Positions 24,561 through 29,142 are shown, counted from the stretch's first letter. The stretch: 64,000 bases of DNA from Candidatus Microgenomates bacterium (GCA_016182045.1 JACOYE010000011.1:39-64038), one strand, 5' to 3'. Numbers and translations: made by a program. The notes: generated from the sequence alone by a model not told the origin.

Positions 24561-26552
24561 TCATACATTTAACCATTCTTCCTCATCAACTCCAGTATCC
24601 GTATCATCCAAGAATTGATCTGAATCTTTAAAAGTAGCATTTGATGAGATTAAGTGCTCAGGGATATCAGACAAGAAACGGGAAACCAGATTATTAGATC
24701 TTGTGCCAAAATATAATCTTTGTCTGGTATATGTTAAATATAACTTTTCCTTGGCCCGAGTAATCCCCACATAACAAAGCCTTCTTTCTTCCTCCAGTTC
24801 ATTAACATCAAGCATGGATCTAGAATGAGGGAACAATCCCTCCTCCATGCCTACTATAAAAACAACAGGAAACTCTAAACCTTTGGCAGAATGTAGGGTC
24901 ATTAAGGTTACTACATCTTGAGCTTGATTATTGGGGATGTTAGGGCGGCTAGGTAAATAGCCATTTTCCACCAAAGCTACATTTTCTAAAAAGTCTACTA
25001 AATTGGGAAATTCTTCTGCCACAGATCGAAGTTCTTTGACATTTTCCACCCGTCCCTTTCCTTCTTCAGTGCCATCATCTAAATATGTCAAGTAGCCTGT
25101 GACTTGTAGGATTTTATCCAGAAGCTCCATAGTGGTGTAACCACTTTCGTCATTGCGAGGAGACGTAGTCGACGAAGCAATCTCATTAACAAGATTGCCA
25201 CGCGAACTTCGTTCGCTCGCAATGACGTTTTGCAACTCCATTATTTTTGCAAGTCTGCCCTTACCAATTTTTTCTGCCCGCTTTAAGGAAACAGAATCTT
25301 TGGGATTTTGTAAAAGTCTTAAATAGGCAAGAACATCTTTAATTTCTTTTCTTTGATAAAAACTGACTCCACCGACTAATCTGTAAGGGACGCCCGATTT
25401 TAAAAATTGTTCCTCCAAAGACCTTGATTGGGCGTTAGTACGGTAGAGGATAGCAAAATCTGATAGCGGTTTGTTGTCATTGCGAGGAGACGTAGTCGAC
25501 GTGGCAATCTTTATTTTTGAGCCAGATTGCTTCGCTTCGCTCGCAATGACGTTTAAAATGAATAAAGTTTCCGCTACCTCATTTCTTACTTCCACCACTT
25601 CTATTTTTTCTCCTCCATCTTTTTGAGTCCAAAGTTTTAAAATTGGATGAGATTTATTTTTGGAAATAACAGCATGAGCTGCATCCAGGATGTTTTGAGT
25701 AGATCTATAATTTTGTTCAAGATTAAAAATTTTGGCATTGGGATAGTCTTTTTCAAAATTGACTATATTTCTAAAATCAGCTCCTCGGAATGAATATATG
25801 GACTGGCTTGCATCACCTACTACGCAAATGTTTTTATGACGGTTAGCCAAATATTTAGAAATTAAATATTGGGCAGGATTGGTATCCTGATATTCATCGA
25901 TTAAGATATATTTAAATTGGATTTGATATCTGGTTAAAATGGCTGGTTCTGTTTGAAAAAGCTGGATCACTTTTAATAGCAGATCATCAAAATCCAAAGC
26001 ATGATTTTTTTCCAAAATTTTCTGATATTCCAGATAAATTTTGGCCACAAGTTCCTGGAAAAAACCTCTGGCATATTGAGGATATTCTAAAGAAGAAATT
26101 AATTCATTTTTGGCCCCGGAGATGGTGGCCCGAACTGCAGAAGGGGAGGTTTTTTGAGTTGGAATATTTAAATTACCCATGGCTTCTTTGATAGCATCCA
26201 AAGCATCGGATTCATCATAAATAGCAAAGCCGGGAGGAAGCCCTAGCACTTTGCCTTCACGACGCAAGATTTTGGCACAGAAAGAATGGAATGTGCCCAT
26301 CACTGGTTGGGTGGGAAGATCGCCAATTAATTTTTTAATTCGCTCAATCATCTCTCCGCTGGCCTTATTTGTAAAAGTTAATACAAGTATATTTTCAGGT
26401 GGAATTTTCTTCTCAGAAATTAAGTAAGCCACTCTGTAGGTGAGTACTCTGGTTTTTCCAGAACCAGCTCCGGCTAAAATTAAAACTGGGCCTTCAGTTT
26501 GTTTGACAGCTTTTTGTTGAGCGGGATTTAGATCATCTAGGAGAGCAGACAT
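24561..26552 (-). CDS. UvrD/PcrA/Rep-family superfamily-1 DNA helicase (start moved to ATG at 26552, MSALLDDLNPAQ)
   Basis: LLDDLNPAQQ, Walker A GAGSGKT and motifs through TLHSAKGLEFPVVF...RRLCYVGITRAK. It carries two in-frame MITE-like inserts. Confidence 0.9.
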   Translation of the reverse strand: MSALLDDLNPAQQKAVKQTEGPVLILAGAGSGKTRVLTYRVAYLISEKKIPPENILVLTFTNKASGEMIERIKKLIGDLPTQPVMGTFHSFCAKILRREGKVLGLPPGFAIYDESDALDAIKEAMGNLNIPTQKTSPSAVRATISGAKNELISSLEYPQYARGFFQELVAKIYLEYQKILEKNHALDFDDLLLKVIQLFQTEPAILTRYQIQFKYILIDEYQDTNPAQYLISKYLANRHKNICVVGDASQSIYSFRGADFRNIVNFEKDYPNAKIFNLEQNYRSTQNILDAAHAVISKNKSHPILKLWTQKDGGEKIEVVEVRNEVAETLFILNVIASEAKQSGSKIKIATSTTSPRNDNKPLSDFAILYRTNAQSRSLEEQFLKSGVPYRLVGGVSFYQRKEIKDVLAYLRLLQNPKDSVSLKRAEKIGKGRLAKIMELQNVIASERSSRGNLVNEIASSTTSPRNDESGYTTMELLDKILQVTGYLTYLDDGTEEGKGRVENVKELRSVAEEFPNLVDFLENVALVENGYLPSRPNIPNNQAQDVVTLMTLHSAKGLEFPVVFIVGMEEGLFPHSRSMLDVNELEEERRLCYVGITRAKEKLYLTYTRQRLYFGTRSNNLVSRFLSDIPEHLISSNATFKDSDQFLDDTDTGVDEEEWLNV
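25149..25226 (-). mobile_element. 78-bp MITE-like palindromic element with 12-bp terminal inverted repeats (gtcattgcgag...ctcgcaatgac), in-frame in the helicase gene
   Basis: 78 bp = 26 codons, translated as VIASERSSRGNLVNEIASSTTSPRND. A second copy lies 337 bp away. Confidence 0.5.
25486..25560 (-). mobile_element. 75-bp second copy of the MITE-like element, in-frame in the helicase gene
   Basis: 75 bp = 25 codons, translated as VIASEAKQSGSKIKIATSTTSPRND. The first 26 nt and last 13 nt are identical to copy 1, and it has the nested gcaatct/agattgc inverted repeat. Confidence 0.5.
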
Positions 26553-26588
26553 GAAGCATATATTAACATTTGCCAGCAAAGTTGACAA

Positions 26589-26619
26589 AGTTTGTAAGAT
26601 TTCAGTTAAAATTTAGGTA
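26589..26619 (+). repeat. Direct repeat DR-A copy 1 (agtttgtaagatttcagttaaaatttaggta, 31 bp)
   Basis: Perfect identity with 27602-27632. Together the copies bracket the GC-rich segment. Confidence 0.9.
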
Positions 26620-26917
26620 AATTTTCAATGTTTGGAGGCTAAAGTATTGAAAAATATGTTAAAATATCATTGAAATCTTATGCCAGAAAGGATAAGGATC
26701 GTATTTCTACCTTCAGGACTACTCCGATAGAGGTAAATTACGAGCTATCAACACGGAAACAGAAGCACCAAAGCAGCCGCCGATAGAACGTTTAAAACGA
26801 CTCTTAGTAGGGTGGGCAAGGCGTGGTCGCACAGGGACAGAAGCAAATCCAGAACAACAGATATTAACTCCTGTCCGTCTTAAAGACTATCTTCTACAAG
26901 CAGCAAAAAGCCCATCG

Positions 26918-27556
26918 TTGGCAGTTAATCCCATGCCTAAAGTTTTTGACCTTGGGGAATTTGGAAGAGAAGCAGAAAGATTATTGCACCTATCCCTGAG
27001 AGATCCTAAACACCCGGAGTATGCCTCAATAGCTTGCATTAACGATAAAGGTCGGCTCGTCATCTTAAAGGAACCCATCCGAGGTGATGAGAGGAGCGTT
27101 CCGGTTCCCGCCCCCAAGGATAAACGCAGGGTCCTTTTGCTACATACCCACGGTGACACTGATACTCCTTTCTCCGCAAGTGATTTAGAGGGCTTATTTG
27201 TGCCCTCAGCCGAGAATGGGGTTCCAGCCGTGCTTCTCGCCACTCCGAGTCTGAAAATGCTGATTCTTCGCACCAAAGATACTCCCTATCTCACGCCGCT
27301 TCAAATTGAAGATAGGACTGTGATGATGTGGCTCCACCCAGCTACGGAAGAGGAGAGAAAACTATTCGAAGCTGGTTATCAGGCAGCGGGCGGTGAAGAA
27401 GCCGATAGGCCACCAGAGCTTACTCCAGAGTATAAGCAAGCCCTTCGTCAGCTCAGCAGCAAGCGAATGTTCGTGCTCACCCGCGCTGCCCATGAGTATA
27501 ATCTCAAAGGCTACTCTTGCCCATCTAACCAGAATATTGTGTCACTTCTCAGCTAA
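26918..27556 (+). CDS. JAB/MPN (JAMM) metalloprotease-domain protein on a GC-rich foreign segment, probably 5-prime truncated
   Basis: LLLHTHGDTDTPFSASDL is a perfect HxHx7SxxD JAMM/RadC-like motif, with an upstream Glu in ILKEPIRGDE. The frame is open from 26696 (74 codons upstream of the TTG start) with no start codon. GC is roughly 50% by eye against AT-rich flanks. Confidence 0.5.
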   Translation: MAVNPMPKVFDLGEFGREAERLLHLSLRDPKHPEYASIACINDKGRLVILKEPIRGDERSVPVPAPKDKRRVLLLHTHGDTDTPFSASDLEGLFVPSAENGVPAVLLATPSLKMLILRTKDTPYLTPLQIEDRTVMMWLHPATEEERKLFEAGYQAAGGEEADRPPELTPEYKQALRQLSSKRMFVLTRAAHEYNLKGYSCPSNQNIVSLLS

Positions 27557-27601
27557 CCCGCATCTTTAGTGGCGAGCCAGAAAATGGTGGGGTCACTTCC
27601 C

Positions 27602-27632
27602 AGTTTGTAAGATTTCAGTTAAAATTTAGGTA
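27602..27632 (+). repeat. Direct repeat DR-A copy 2
   Basis: Identical 31-mer to 26589-26619. It abuts DR-B copy 1. Confidence 0.9.
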
Positions 27633-27633
27633 G

Positions 27634-27653
27634 TTTTCCCCTAGACAATTTTT
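27634..27653 (+). repeat. Direct repeat DR-B copy 1 (ttttcccctagacaattttt, 20 bp)
   Basis: Identical 20-mer at 28540-28559. The copies bracket the two-gene NTase cassette. Confidence 0.8.
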
Positions 27654-27679
27654 GGCTTTGGAAATGGTATAATTAAGGT

Positions 27680-27943
27680 ATGTATAACTGGTCTGTTGAT
27701 GAAAAAAGGTTTAAAAAGGAAAACCCTAAAGAGTATAGACTGTGGAGGTTGGTGCAGCTGATAAACTATGGACTGGATGGAGAAAAACTGGATAGGGAGG
27801 AGGTCAAAAAAGCCTGGCCGAAGATTAAAGATCAGCTTGATCCATATAAGGCTAGGGCAATAGAATATTTATTATGGGGAAAGCTATACTCACTCCCGAA
27901 CAACTTAACTTTCTGGAATTTATCCAAAAAGAACAACAAATAA
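27680..27943 (+). CDS. Small hypothetical protein upstream of and overlapping the NTase gene (candidate partner/antitoxin)
   Basis: 87-aa ORF. It overlaps the next ORF by 70 nt in another frame. No family recognised. Confidence 0.3.
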   Translation: MYNWSVDEKRFKKENPKEYRLWRLVQLINYGLDGEKLDREEVKKAWPKIKDQLDPYKARAIEYLLWGKLYSLPNNLTFWNLSKKNNK

Positions 27944-28539
27944 CCAAACGCTTTTATTGGACCGGCGGAACAGTTCTTTCTGAATTCTACCTGCAACACA
28001 GACTTTCGGAAGATATAGATTTATTCAATGAATTTGAGGAGGTAAATCAGAGTTTAATAGATGCTTTCTTAAAAAAGATTTCACCTTCACTTCAAGTAAC
28101 AGAGATTAAGAAAAGTCAGTTTTTAGGTTTAGTGAGTTATATCTTGGTTTTTAAAAATAGTCAGAAACTAAAAATAGATTTTAATTATTATCCATTTCCT
28201 AGAATTGAAAAAGGCAAGAAATATAAAAATTTAGAGATAGACAGTATTTATGATATTGCTGTAAATAAAGTGCATACTATGTTTATGCGGACAAAAGCCA
28301 GGGATTTTGTTGACATTTATTTCATCATGAAAACAATTGATTATCATTTAGATCAGCTCATCAGGGACGCGAAGGTTAAGTTTGACTGGCATATTGATAA
28401 AGTTACTTTGGCCAGTCAATTTATGAAAGTCAAAGAAATTAAAGATTTACCTAAAATGTTGTTACCATTTAATCAAAAAGATATGGAAAAATTTTATCTA
28501 AAGCTGGCTAAATCTTTAGAAGAAGAGATCTTAAAATAA
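27874..28539 (+). CDS. Pol-beta-superfamily nucleotidyltransferase, AbiEii/DUF1814-like (abortive-infection / type IV TA toxin family)
   Basis: YWTGGTVLSEFYLQHRLSEDIDLF matches the GG...S.DhD NTase motif and AbiEii N-terminal architecture. 221 aa. Confidence 0.55.
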   Translation: MGKAILTPEQLNFLEFIQKEQQITKRFYWTGGTVLSEFYLQHRLSEDIDLFNEFEEVNQSLIDAFLKKISPSLQVTEIKKSQFLGLVSYILVFKNSQKLKIDFNYYPFPRIEKGKKYKNLEIDSIYDIAVNKVHTMFMRTKARDFVDIYFIMKTIDYHLDQLIRDAKVKFDWHIDKVTLASQFMKVKEIKDLPKMLLPFNQKDMEKFYLKLAKSLEEEILK

Positions 28540-28559
28540 TTTTCCCCTAGACAATTTTT
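28540..28559 (+). repeat. Direct repeat DR-B copy 2
   Basis: Identical to 27634-27653. It lies immediately upstream of trxA. Confidence 0.8.
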
Positions 28560-28585
28560 TAAACTATTGTTATTATCTAAATCTT

Positions 28586-28846
28586 ATGGCAGTTAAACTT
28601 TTGGATTTTTGGGCTCCTTGGTGTGGACCCTGCCATGTTATGACTCCTGTTTTGGAAGAGATTAAAAAAGAAATGGGAGATAAGGTGGAAATTGAGGAAA
28701 TTAATGTAGATGAAAAACCTGAGGAAGCTTCTAAATTTGGAGTCATGAGTATTCCTACCTATATTATATTAAGGGATAATAAAGAGGTTGGAAGGAAAAT
28801 TGGGGTTACCCCAAAAGCAGAGCTAATAAAACTTCTACAAAGTTGA
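28586..28846 (+). CDS. trxA: Thioredoxin
   Basis: WAPWCGPC active site, 86 aa. Confidence 0.9.
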   Translation: MAVKLLDFWAPWCGPCHVMTPVLEEIKKEMGDKVEIEEINVDEKPEEASKFGVMSIPTYIILRDNKEVGRKIGVTPKAELIKLLQS

Positions 28847-29142
28847 ATTTCAAGGAGAAAGTCATCAATATTGTTAAGAAAATACCATATGGTCGAGTAA
28901 CCACCTACGGTACCGTGGCAATTTTGGCTGGTGTCCCTCGTGGGGCAAGATTGGTGGGTGGGGTTTTACACTTTAATATTGAGGCTGCACCATGGCATAG
29001 AGTTATTAACCGACATGGATTTATTTCTACCAAATGTTTGGAGCATCCTAAAGCTTTACAAAAGATACTTTTGGAACAGGAGGGAATTGAGGTAACTGAC
29101 GATTTCATGATAGACTTACAAAAGTATGGATGGTGGGGATAA
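28843..29142 (+). CDS. Alkyltransferase-like (ATL) protein: MGMT/Ogt DNA-binding domain with PWHRV instead of PCHRV
   Basis: VPRGARLVGGVLHFNIEAAPWHRVINRHGFIS. Trp replaces the acceptor Cys, as in ATL proteins (Atl1/YbaZ). Translationally coupled to trxA. Confidence 0.7.
   Translation: MNFKEKVINIVKKIPYGRVTTYGTVAILAGVPRGARLVGGVLHFNIEAAPWHRVINRHGFISTKCLEHPKALQKILLEQEGIEVTDDFMIDLQKYGWWG

Follow-up and report, generated by a model that had tools for sequence, protein, structure and literature searches.

How the gap between a helicase gene and trxA came to hold two consecutive pairs of perfect direct repeats is the question raised by this locus, which lies in the window (the whole stretch of 64,000 nucleotides that was analysed). 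An earlier note had described the gap as two consecutive, repeat-delimited inserts at a candidate cassette-capture hotspot. Both repeat pairs are real and exact, and they are not due to chance. The 31-mer AGTTTGTAAGATTTCAGTTAAAATTTAGGTA occurs exactly twice in the window, with 0 copies expected from shuffled sequences, and a third copy is not found in the window even when three mismatches are allowed. The 20-mer TTTTCCCCTAGACAATTTTT also occurs exactly twice (0.02 expected), and its repeat lengthens to 23 nt when one mismatch is accepted. The high GC content that had been noticed for the first insert is also confirmed: the value is 47.6% between the 31-mers (26620-27601), whereas the window as a whole has 38.3% and the second segment 32%. 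The two pairs are not equivalent, however, as the 20-mer is the -35 region of the trxA promoter, fused in its upstream copy to the tail of a left arm of a larger element (Table 1). It is possible that the locus is a small, decayed and transposase-less copy of a gene-capture locus that has not been described before.

Table 1. Features of the helicase-trxA gap and its two anchoring genes, in coordinates of the window
Feature	Position	Strand	Basis
UvrD/PcrA-type helicase, left anchor of the hotspot	24561..26552	-	Pfam UvrD-helicase 1.5e-90, UvrD_C 1.9e-66; synteny in all related loci
Helicase promoter-like TTGTCA-17-TAATAT	26588-26560	-	promoter scan
31-mer copy 1: AGTT and first 27 nt of E_1 left arm	26589..26619	+	
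E_1, full 90-bp palindromic element	26593..26682	+	nhmmer E 1.7e-18 against element profile; alignment A1
E_1 left arm, ends ...TTTTCA	26593-26627	+	
E_1 20-nt spacer ATGTTTGGAGGCTAAAGTAT	26628-26647	+	
E_1 right arm, starts TGAAAAAT, ends ...TTGAAATCTTATG	26648-26682	+	
Cargo 1, ~48% GC, DUF4329-family gene	26683..27605	+	
31-mer copy 2: AGTT and first 27 nt of LEFT_2 (left-arm-only copy)	27602..27632	+	
LEFT_2, left arm of E alone, without spacer or right arm	27606..27638	+	nhmmer, profile positions 1-37
20-mer copy 1: last 5 nt of LEFT_2 and copy of trxA -35 region (TAGACA 27642-27647)	27634..27653	+	
AbiE module extended -10 TGGTATAAT	from 27665	+	
AbiE-type module, 32% GC	27666..28539	+	Pfam, PADLOC
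87-aa partner ORF	27680-27943	+	no Pfam or PADLOC match
AbiEii nucleotidyltransferase	27874-28539	+	Pfam PF08843 1.1e-15; PADLOC AbiEii 1.2e-12
20-mer copy 2 and native trxA promoter/leader	28540..28585	+	
trxA promoter: TAGACA, 17-nt spacer, TATTAT	28548-28553, 28571-28576		promoter scan, 10/12 with TG
trxA (thioredoxin, 86 aa), right anchor of the hotspot	28586..28846	+	Pfam Thioredoxin 6.9e-23; synteny

Element E and the two repeats of the window

The earlier note had likened the repeats to att-site or cassette boundaries. The 31-mer is not a self-contained att core, and consists of AGTT followed by 27 nt that begin the left arm of a longer sequence, a conserved 90-bp near-palindrome (TGTAAGATTTCA…TGAAATCTTACA), referred to here as E, which starts with TGTAAGATTTCA and ends with TGAAATCTTACA in all copies and is present once even in empty sites. 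The full copy of the window (E_1) is 81-84% identical to the elements of relatives, is mutated in its final 2 nt and in the -35 of the transposase promoter when compared with the family consensus, and has predicted stems of 10 bp (outer) and 8 bp (inner). The internal loops of E are long and near-invariant in sequence, and its right half has a -10-like TATAAT and a leader resembling the trxA leader (repeat family D4); conversely, the trxA leader (CTAAATCTT-ATG) resembles the end of the E right arm. When the halves of E are inspected by eye, TGAAA(A/G)AT... is seen at the inner tip of each, with TGAAATCTTACA at a distance of about 23 nt, and the two tips have the form TG...CA. Each arm may be read as a pair of direct repeats of TGAAA type (8/12 matches), spaced by about 23 bp and with a terminal ...CA. 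Covariation for an RNA or DNA hairpin is too weak, as the outer stem is invariant and one inner-stem pair is T-A or G-C, with three of the eight sequences mismatched. A known RNA family was also considered, and Rfam has no match for the window (gathering thresholds) or for the E copies of L094, L103 and L096 (E<=1).

The second 31-mer belongs to LEFT_2. In all, the window has a single complete E, a single block of GC-rich cargo and a lone left arm. LEFT_2 stops at ...GTTTTC, at the same position as the half-elements of L092 and L003 (two junctions in the latter). Left-arm-only copies thus have one shared break, ...GATTTT(G)C, at four independent junctions, each joined to different DNA; a degenerate left-arm copy in L122 ends one base earlier. 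The two left arms of the window have T15 and A27 in common.

In sequence searches, E is found at two sites only, being the helicase-trxA gap of one Daviesbacteria subclade and the neighbourhood of an IS21-like istA-istB pair. When metagenomes were scanned for a 20-nt motif taken from the 31-mer, 32 loci were obtained; 12 of them have the full element context, and all 12 are the helicase-trxA locus or adjoin istA. Further copies were not detected by a profile search of the 64-kb window and of about 80 additional helicase loci. The 31-mer marks a specific recombination-prone element, in support of the earlier note. The suggestion that the repeats are promoter modules occurring genome-wide fails for the 31-mer, an arm of a confined element. 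A phage or plasmid attP was rejected, the motif having 0 matches in 2.9 million viral contigs, and so was a MITE, as the true copies of the metagenome scan all lie at one locus or beside istAB rather than dispersed. In the opposite reading, a right arm, its cargo and a left arm form a TG...CA unit whose inverted ends measure about 35 nt and which encodes no transposase, as in mobile insertion cassettes and MITEs, where IS ends enclose passenger DNA that is mobilised in trans; unlike MITEs, these units stand head to tail at one locus, with a conserved spacer and without flanking target duplications. A dif/Xer site (the 31-mer has merely a weak 11-6-11 dyad symmetry) and a replication origin or terminus were also rejected; in the latter case the genes diverge here, yet the GC skew across the window tracks the gene strand, with no switch at the locus. 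The trxA, helicase and TIM proteins of the window have no identical protein on record (exact-protein look-ups).

The ORF of the first cassette had been assigned to JAB/MPN. The Prok-JAB match is below threshold (E 0.08, 13.3 bits versus a cut-off of 25), and the significant family is DUF4329 (ORF 26918-27556, E 5e-7, 30.1 bits versus a Pfam cut-off of 28.6). The open frame 26696-27556 can be aligned over its full length with DUF4329 homologues of 267-289 aa. Its first in-frame start is a TTG at 26918, with none before codon 75, and the ATG at 26680 within E_1 is out of frame with the gene. The conserved N-terminal part has no in-frame start, and the gene is therefore probably decaying. Its homologues in L115 and L116 are located in ordinary chromosomal neighbourhoods of 36-45% GC, without E.

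The AbiEii-like assignment of the second cassette is supported by Pfam and PADLOC (Table 1). The overlapping operon arrangement of the nucleotidyltransferase with a small upstream partner is as in AbiE type IV toxin-antitoxin (abortive infection) systems. Unlike in AbiE, the partner matches neither AbiEi nor another family, and an AbiEi-type winged-helix antitoxin is not present upstream of AbiEii; a short partner of the 87-aa type is conserved in L122 and L123. More than 1500 homologues of this variant are found, and, unlike for AbiE elsewhere, every one with a source name is from Patescibacteria/CPR. The module recurs with the same leader in L122 and L123, being in L123 at a different locus, where it is also flanked by a direct repeat of about 20 nt. 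In L122 it lies at the same place, with the downstream 20-mer copy only; the upstream copy falls in a 28-nt stretch (27638-27665) that is missing there. Insertion of the AbiE module therefore does not need the duplication. The 20-bp repeat is a separate small duplication of the -35 region of the trxA promoter, which is also present in L094, L101, L122 and L003. The AbiE module appears to be a resident of the hotspot and not E-flanked cargo.

Graded arrays and the istA-istB pair in related lineages

The proposal of a cassette-capture hotspot is in agreement with the comparison of relatives: the helicase-trxA gap is a hypervariable insertion site in about a dozen related lineages, with different cargo (PIN/Phd, PIN/MazE, HTH/PIN, Fic, AbiE, NrtR-like and GC-rich unknowns). 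Empty sites are found in L094 and L118, which have one E and no cargo. In L119, L120 and L121, two E copies enclose a 449-nt cargo (55% GC), and in L117 two E copies enclose a 452-nt cargo at a second locus. The largest array, in L103 and L101, has five E copies and four cargo blocks of 671-2695 nt, with 54-58% GC versus 32-35% for the host, and the GC switch coincides exactly with the ends of E.

The E copies inside one genome are 99-100% identical and have lineage-specific changes, as also seen for the three copies of L117 (at two loci) and the two copies of L119. In L103, four copies are identical and the fifth, trxA-proximal copy is 88% identical to those four. This identity, combined with the lineage-specific changes, fits local copying and not import. 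A short target duplication is seen at only one of seven cargo blocks, the second cassette of L103, where the 7-bp direct repeat CATACAG directly abuts the flanking E copies; the target duplications of IS21 range from 4 to 8 bp. The orientation of the cargo is mixed and several cargo ORFs end within E, which suggests that some blocks are fragments and not neat cassettes of one gene each. BLASTN and TBLASTX comparisons among 11 loci find no cargo that is used again in another array, only E being shared, and the cassette boundaries are therefore not definable from re-used cargo.

The earlier note had suggested looking for a cognate recombinase elsewhere. A candidate is the IS21-like istA-istB pair, which is separated from E by 39-45 nt in L103, L092, L083, L117, L118 and L119. 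It heads the array, is single-copy and reads away from the array. As in IS21, the IstA gene (DDE transposase; rve fold and Mu-transposase C domain in Pfam) is followed by the IstB gene (AAA+ ATPase; IstB_IS21). IstA aligns to the IstA of IS5376 (PDB) with E 9e-47 and with the DDE motifs conserved, query residue 3 aligning to residue 53. The first of the two N-terminal HTH domains of full-length IstA is thus absent, and DNA recognition may therefore differ. The proteins of this clade have 386-398 aa and no HTH family match; several distant CPR IstA proteins (413-464 aa) carry one. The istA promoter (TTGACT-17-TATAAT, scoring 11/12) has its -35 inside the E left arm, just as the transposase promoter of IS21 lies partly inside the left end. 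The assembly of E, 39-nt leader and istAB occurs at two different loci, the second being FemAB|DOT1, and the junction between leader and E is at the same position across lineages in which IstA is 69-81% identical.

The ends of IS21 are known to be composed of two repeats that have a terminal CA each; abutted (tandem) ends are acted on by IstA, which generates replicon fusions from them (PMC10122671). To the eye, the E ends may likewise be read as two direct repeats with terminal CA, abutted tip to tip as in the reactive junction of the (IS21)2 tandem. Unlike IS21, the istAB pair is not enclosed by inverted repeats: at no locus does istB have a right-end repeat within its 3' end or beyond it, nor is there an arm-like sequence downstream. 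Even the DNA sequence of this 3' end lacks conservation, and the istB stop (CTAA-ATG) directly adjoins the first codon of the helicase or of a DOT1-like methyltransferase. The pair is therefore not a canonical IS. It also differs from IS21 in being syntenic and diverging at about the rate of a core gene (73-84%, similar to 71-84% for the helicase). Further differences are the conserved 20-bp spacer, the occurrence of as many as five copies of the abutted-end unit, separated by unrelated foreign DNA, and the confinement of E to one or two loci.

Possible origins of the arrays

We consider it on balance probable that the window is the fossil of an IS21-type, transposase-linked and locus-specific cassette array, in which IstAB acted on E. 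E itself, its arrays, its confinement to this locus, its linkage to istAB and the breakpoints are observed, and we infer both that IstAB makes the arrays and the following route. E would be two IS21-type transposon ends, tip to tip over a 20-bp spacer, and IstAB acting on these ends would fuse foreign circular DNA into the locus. Capture of the cointegrate type would leave one E on each side of the cargo, and the same end chemistry could cause adjacent deletions, generating left-arm-only copies joined to arbitrary DNA. The unit of the window would then be E_1, the DUF4329 cargo and LEFT_2, with the 31-bp repeat as the shared left arm, followed by the AbiE module and the trxA promoter. This copy of the array is most likely inactive, a fossil rather than an active hotspot, as no istA-istB pair is near (tblastn finds no IstA or IstB homologue in the window) and E_1 has lost the transposase-promoter -35 and the terminal CA. 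A more specific version, in which a domesticated platform of IstA without HTH-1 and IstB uses E as a fixed end pair, fuses foreign circles and copies E each time, is possible although we regard it as rather unlikely.

Several observations count against IstAB acting on E. The right end after istB that is predicted by the mechanism is absent, and the target duplication predicted by the cointegrate model is seen at the single cargo block mentioned above. IS21 tandem junctions have 2-3 bp between the ends, and the 20-bp spacer of E is far above this length. The breakpoints are after C and not after the CA that is expected for a DDE 3' end. The two-repeat structure of each arm is a reading by eye, the IstA of relatives lacks HTH-1, the window has no istAB, the duplication of the 20-mer is left unexplained, and RecA-dependent exchange among identical E copies could explain part of the pattern.

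Exchange by RecA could also be the whole explanation, with no dedicated enzyme: circles from related cells carrying E or the trxA promoter would integrate by single crossover (Campbell type), and homologous recombination in the core genes on either side would drive the turnover of the hotspot. This is unlikely, although several points are in its favour: perfect repeats are found within conserved intergenic DNA, the use of two different flanking sequences (31-mer and 20-mer) in one locus is more readily explained by homology than by a single specific site, the AbiE module of L123 has its own direct repeat, and wholly different cargo is found between syntenic flanks. GC-rich cargo could not have brought a host-type, AT-rich E, yet it abuts complete E copies with lineage-specific changes that are identical within a genome; homology-driven exchange does not predict the same half-element break at four independent junctions; and E is repeatedly and tightly linked to istAB, moving with it to the second locus. 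The same linkage bears on a rather less probable possibility, in which E would be a palindrome native to the divergent helicase and trxA promoter region, with a role in regulation. In this case istAB would be an ordinary IS favouring the palindrome as target, and the duplications would be by-products of insertions that need to restore trxA expression. The TATAAT and trxA-like leader in the right half of E agree with such a role, as does the identity of the 20-mer, and relatives of IS21 are reported to insert near palindromic or end-like sequences. It is at odds with the fixed junction of the 39-nt istA leader, with an istA promoter that is split across this junction, with the travel of E to the FemAB|DOT1 locus and with a single-copy istAB whose helicase-like divergence is unlike that of a hopping IS.

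If E were an attC-like folded site of a tyrosine recombinase encoded elsewhere, the arrays would resemble integrons or, more precisely, CALINs, in which attC sites are clustered without an integrase. Imperfect palindromes of 90 nt (the known range is about 57-141 nt), folding as stem, internal loop, stem and loop, separate the cargo units, with up to five copies per array. The recombination gene at the head is transcribed away, toxin-antitoxin cargo is present, several cargo ORFs terminate inside the repeat, and the repeats are near-identical within one genome as in sedentary chromosomal integrons. We nevertheless think this very improbable. The ends of E are TGTAAGA.../...TCTTACA and not the R'' (RYYYAAC) and R' (GTTRRRY) boxes of attC, no GTTRRRY is found at the E boundaries, and the long, almost invariant internal loops are unlike attC. 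The array-head gene encodes a DDE transposase with an AAA+ ATPase and not IntI, and no Phage_integrase or resolvase family member is among the genes called in the 7-20 kb around the locus in L117-L122. The cargo blocks are also larger than those of integrons and of mixed orientation, with ORFs running into the next E, and AT-rich host-type repeats stand beside GC-rich foreign cargo. Least credible of all is an assembly artefact, in which a k-mer in common would have led to the joining of strain variants or of an unrelated contig with high GC content. In its favour, the repeat length of exactly 31 nt is one often used for k-mers, the Logan contigs break exactly at the 31-mer, and the GC content jumps at the junction. 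However, the same architecture is seen in more than 12 assemblies from different projects and assemblers (JGI, ENA, NCBI MAGs, Logan), and cassettes 2-4 have the same order in the separately deposited contigs L103 and L101. Concerning the chimerism that the earlier note wished to see checked, all four junctions of the window are recovered in independent k=31 Logan contigs, one with 31-mer, cassette 1 and 31-mer (L114, present in four samples) and one with 31-mer, 20-mer, cassette 2, 20-mer and trxA (L001), and the junction k-mers are in the reads of four samples.

Significance of a possible IS21-type capture locus

Among bacterial platforms that accumulate foreign genes at a single chromosomal site, only integrons are well understood, and these require a tyrosine recombinase. 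If IstAB does build the arrays, this would be a second such platform, based on a DDE transposase of IS21 type together with its ATPase, and would represent a new way of acquiring genes as well as a new case of transposase domestication. It would be a DDE-transposase analogue of the integron, growing by repeat, cargo and repeat in a manner reminiscent of CRISPR arrays, and the window would represent its decayed state. No description of such a locus is found in the literature searched (Patescibacteria integrons and cassette arrays, CPR IS21, Daviesbacteria toxin-antitoxin). The ultra-small bacteria of the candidate phyla radiation (CPR) are thought to be dependent on other cells and on DNA uptake, and a capture platform could explain how they sample foreign DNA, partly GC-rich. 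Even when considered conservatively, the locus is a hotspot with precise boundaries, in which empty, single and multiple states are clearly distinguished, and is useful for studying genome flux in uncultured lineages, and the 90-bp E is a specific marker for such arrays in metagenomes. Toxin-antitoxin modules gather at the helicase-trxA site.

Repeat pairs of the window and the element E

Both direct repeats described in the earlier note are present in exactly two copies, the 31-mer at 26589-26619 and 27602-27632 and the 20-mer at 27634-27653 and 28540-28559, the latter pair being extendable to 23 nt with one mismatch. No further copy of the 31-mer is found in the whole window when up to three mismatches are allowed, and by chance no copy would be expected. 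GC content is indeed high in the first bracketed segment (47.6%, when compared with 38.3% window-wide), and that of the second is 32%. Concerning the gene content, the AbiEii assignment stands, its partner being an 87-aa protein without a family match, but a JAB/MPN gene in cassette 1 is not retained: the match is to DUF4329, just above threshold, and Prok-JAB is matched below threshold only. The junctions, for which misassembly had been considered, are all reproduced in independent k=31 Logan contigs: L114, present in four samples, is a loop of the 31-mer, cassette 1 and the 31-mer, and in L001 the 31-mer is followed in order by the 20-mer, cassette 2, the 20-mer and trxA.

Scanning genomes with the helicase gave two relatives of 75% identity, one Patescibacteria MAG and one Ca. 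Daviesbacteria MAG, both of which keep the helicase/trxA synteny with different intervening genes; in one of them (locus L003), a GC-rich insert is flanked by a homologous repeat pair. In metagenomes, a scan for the 20-nt motif common to the window and L003 gave 32 loci, 12 of which share a wider sequence context. In these 12 loci, a conserved 90-bp near-palindrome, E, is seen, consisting of TGTAAGATTTCAGTCAAAATTTAGGTGATTTTTCA, a 20-nt spacer and TGAAAGATAGGGTATATAAACATTGAAATCTTACA; the 31-mer corresponds to AGTT followed by the initial 27 nt of its left arm. All 12 loci are at the UvrD/PcrA helicase-trxA gap or end in an adjacent istA, a profile search finds no extra copy of E in the window or in ~80 unrelated helicase loci, the 20-nt motif is absent from viral contigs, and nothing was found when searching Rfam for an E-like family. 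This restriction in the scans rules out that E is a dispersed MITE, and it also disposes of the previous suggestion that the 31-mer is a genome-wide promoter module. The spacer core reads GAGGCT/GAAGCT in the window (26628-26647), L094, L103, L091 and L117, and is inverted (AGCCTC/AGCTTC) in L092, L096, L118 and L119.

Since E_1 and LEFT_2 (Table) each carry a left arm, the 31-bp perfect direct repeat is the part common to two left arms. In E_1, the -35 of the transposase promoter is mutated (AGTTAA vs AGTCAA), and the final two bases are altered (CTTATG). Over its entire length, the DUF4329 open frame (26696-27556) can be aligned with homologues of 267-289 aa, one of them labelled Dehalococcoidia; their identity to it in the multiple alignment is 42-54%. 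Its first in-frame start is a TTG at 26918, such that the first ~75 conserved codons are without a start, and the ATG inside the E_1 right arm (26680) is one base out of frame with it; the cargo gene has probably undergone a frameshift or is decaying. The istA-istB pair is absent from the window, and the locus is read as a decayed array with one cargo block.

Table. Components of the window array, and arrangement or cargo of the related loci
Feature or locus	Position in window	Description
E_1	26593-26682	full element
Cargo 1	26683-27605	DUF4329-family gene inside
LEFT_2	27606-27638	left arm only
L094		empty site; helicase and 59 nt, then a single E, followed by the trxA promoter and trxA
L118		trxA, promoter, one E, 45 nt, istA-istB-helicase
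L119/120/121		449-nt block, 55% GC, between two identical E copies
L103		helicase, istB, istA, 39 nt, then five E copies around four blocks
L092		cargo Phd/PIN
L003		cargo HTH/PIN and Fic-MerR
L096		cargo Fic + aspartyl-protease-like gene
L091		cargo PIN
L085		cargo AbiEii-like gene
L117		cargo PIN/MazE
L002		cargo NrtR-like gene

Related loci, the transposase pair and the AbiE module

The empty site with a single repeat copy, as anticipated for relatives, is seen in L094. In L103 (L101, L090 and L098 are from the same organism), four of the E copies are identical and the fifth is 88% identical; the cargo blocks (1095, 2695, 671 and 991 nt) have 54-58% GC, the host DNA has 32-35%, and the composition changes exactly at the E ends. 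In other lineages, AT-rich toxin-antitoxin or Fic cargo adjoins E or half-elements. Apart from E, no sequence is common to the inserts of different lineages. Cassettes 2 and 4 of L103 (L101 465-1283 and 3985-4677) encode, in opposite orientation, paralogous proteins with the motif NWQxYK..FGF..KYPSG, which hints at a common donor type.

A candidate for the cognate recombinase, which the earlier note proposed to look for elsewhere, is the istA-istB pair that adjoins E in several relatives, where it is always 39-45 nt from the left arm and directed away from the array. Its promoter (TTGACT-17-TATAAT, near-consensus, 11/12) has the -35 within E and the -10 outside. IstA has rve and Mu-transposase C domains and matches IS5376 IstA (PDB entries 8B4H and 8Q4D) with an E-value of 9e-47 and conserved DDE motifs. 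The alignment begins at residue 53 of IS5376 IstA (L103 7637-8815 and homologues P0013-P0052), and therefore the first HTH domain is missing from the IstA of this clade. Several more distant CPR IstA proteins (413-464 aa) have an N-terminal HTH family match. Members of this clade, which are 68-81% identical, are nearly always found on a single contig, and their between-genome divergence (73-84%) is similar to that of the neighbouring helicase (71-84%), an uncommon finding for an active IS. No right-end repeat is found 3' of istB in the loci of the relatives, and the next gene begins directly at the istB stop codon (CTAA-ATG). The E/istAB unit has a second locus upstream of a DOT1-like methyltransferase gene in L117 and L083: in L117, the FemAB/DOT1 gap holds E, cargo, E, a 39-nt leader and istAB, and the L083 contig terminates inside the first E; the same gap in L119 has no insert.

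The two repeat pairs are not equivalent. Unlike the 31-mer, the 20-mer joins 5 nt from the end of LEFT_2 to CCCTAGACAATTTTT, the -35 region of the trxA promoter (TAGACA-17-TATTAT), a motif conserved upstream of trxA in L094, L101, L122 and L003. The AbiE module is found again, at the corresponding position, in L122 (helicase 79% and AbiEii 87% identical to the window), and is therefore older than the split of these lineages. In L122, a degenerate left arm is fused straight to the extended -10 of the module (TGGTATAAT) and only the downstream motif copy is present, so the 20-mers are not a needed bracket. The window has 28 extra nt (27638-27665) when compared with L122, and the upstream 20-mer copy is either a gain in the window lineage or a loss in L122. 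The trxA promoter motif is also duplicated around inserts in L003. In L123 (1-20, 956-975), an AbiEi-like/AbiEii module in unrelated context has a different ~20-nt direct repeat (TGAGATACAYCGGTTACMCC) at both sides, much as the AbiE module of the window has the 20-mers. It may thus be a recurring feature that insertions are flanked by repeats of ~20 bp.

Possible mechanism of array formation

The E copies of one genome, including the two left arms of the window, are 99-100% identical and have common lineage-specific substitutions, which argues for local copying or homogenisation over import of E with cargo. In the window (27638), L092 and L003 (two junctions), the left-arm-only copies have one endpoint in common, ...GATTTT(G)C, and the DNA joined to it differs in each case; the degenerate L122 copy stops one base earlier, and L096 has a right-arm-only copy. 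These precise breakpoints suggest enzyme-made ends. A possible reading of each half of E is a pair of direct TGAAA-type repeats, ~23 nt apart, with a terminal CA. Such an architecture is reported for IS21 ends, and IstA processes these ends singly and abutted in tandem (PMC10122671). On this reading, E would resemble two ends that meet tip to tip over a conserved 20-nt spacer. In L103, cassette 2 has the 7-bp direct repeat CATACAG at both sides, directly abutting the E copies; short direct repeats flank none of the six other cargo blocks.

We are inclined, somewhat beyond even chances, to consider the locus in the window and its relatives as an IS21-type, IstAB-linked array, in which E would be duplicated whenever foreign DNA is captured, and the half-elements would result from end-mediated deletions of adjacent DNA. 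This reading is weakened by four points: a right end is missing, the spacer is long, IstA is without HTH-1, and target duplications are nearly absent. As the sole process, homologous recombination is unlikely, as it leaves unexplained both the host-type E beside GC-rich foreign DNA and the common half-element breakpoint. That E is a regulatory palindrome targeted by an IS is less probable still, being contradicted by the movement of E together with istAB, and an integron-like tyrosine-recombinase system is very improbable, as it passes neither the attC nor the IntI test. An assembly artefact is excluded in practice, because the architecture recurs across projects and assemblers.

For the IstAB-linked array, each part is familiar by itself (proteins and ends of the IS21 type, cargo of toxin-antitoxin genes, a core-gene hotspot), and their combination appears to be undescribed: a single-copy, syntenic istAB without HTH-1, an istB without a right end 3' of it, foreign DNA blocks alternating with a repeated abutted-end element, and only one chromosomal site. 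Full-text literature searches gave nothing relevant on integron-like arrays in Patescibacteria, IS21 in CPR or Daviesbacteria toxin-antitoxin. That the locus is a functional DDE-based gene-capture platform is a tentative proposal, and rather doubtful.

Flanking genes

The helicase gene of the window (minus strand) has two in-frame palindromic insertions of ~78 nt (25149-25226 and 25476-25550; GTCATTGCGAG...CTCGCAATGAC), which fall on the two gap regions of the alignment with the L122 helicase and whose four arms have no other copies in the window. Neither this gene nor the window trxA has an intein. In several relatives, trxA has an intein between WC and GPC of the active site (L101 4793-6484, L096 2172-3863, L091 3354-5132, L118 6105-7802), the products being 563-592 aa, with a Pfam Intein_splicing match in L118. 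The helicase is much longer in L117 (1054-4350), L091 (1-1711) and L085 (9289-12309; 1006 aa); in L117 and L091, an intein is in the P-loop, between GSGK and C, and the L117 product (1098 aa) has Intein_splicing and LAGLIDADG_3. Overlapping the trxA stop codon of the window, 28843-29142 encodes a 99-aa protein with only the DNA-binding domain of O6-methylguanine methyltransferase; this gene, between trxA and tpiA, is missing in L002 and L003 and present in L094, L096, L101 and L122. A sub-threshold Rfam match in L094 (4815-4913, minus strand) to n00280 (54 bits, cut-off 65), an sRNA of Clostridioides difficile whose annotation lies within a helicase gene,, probably reflects conserved helicase coding sequence.
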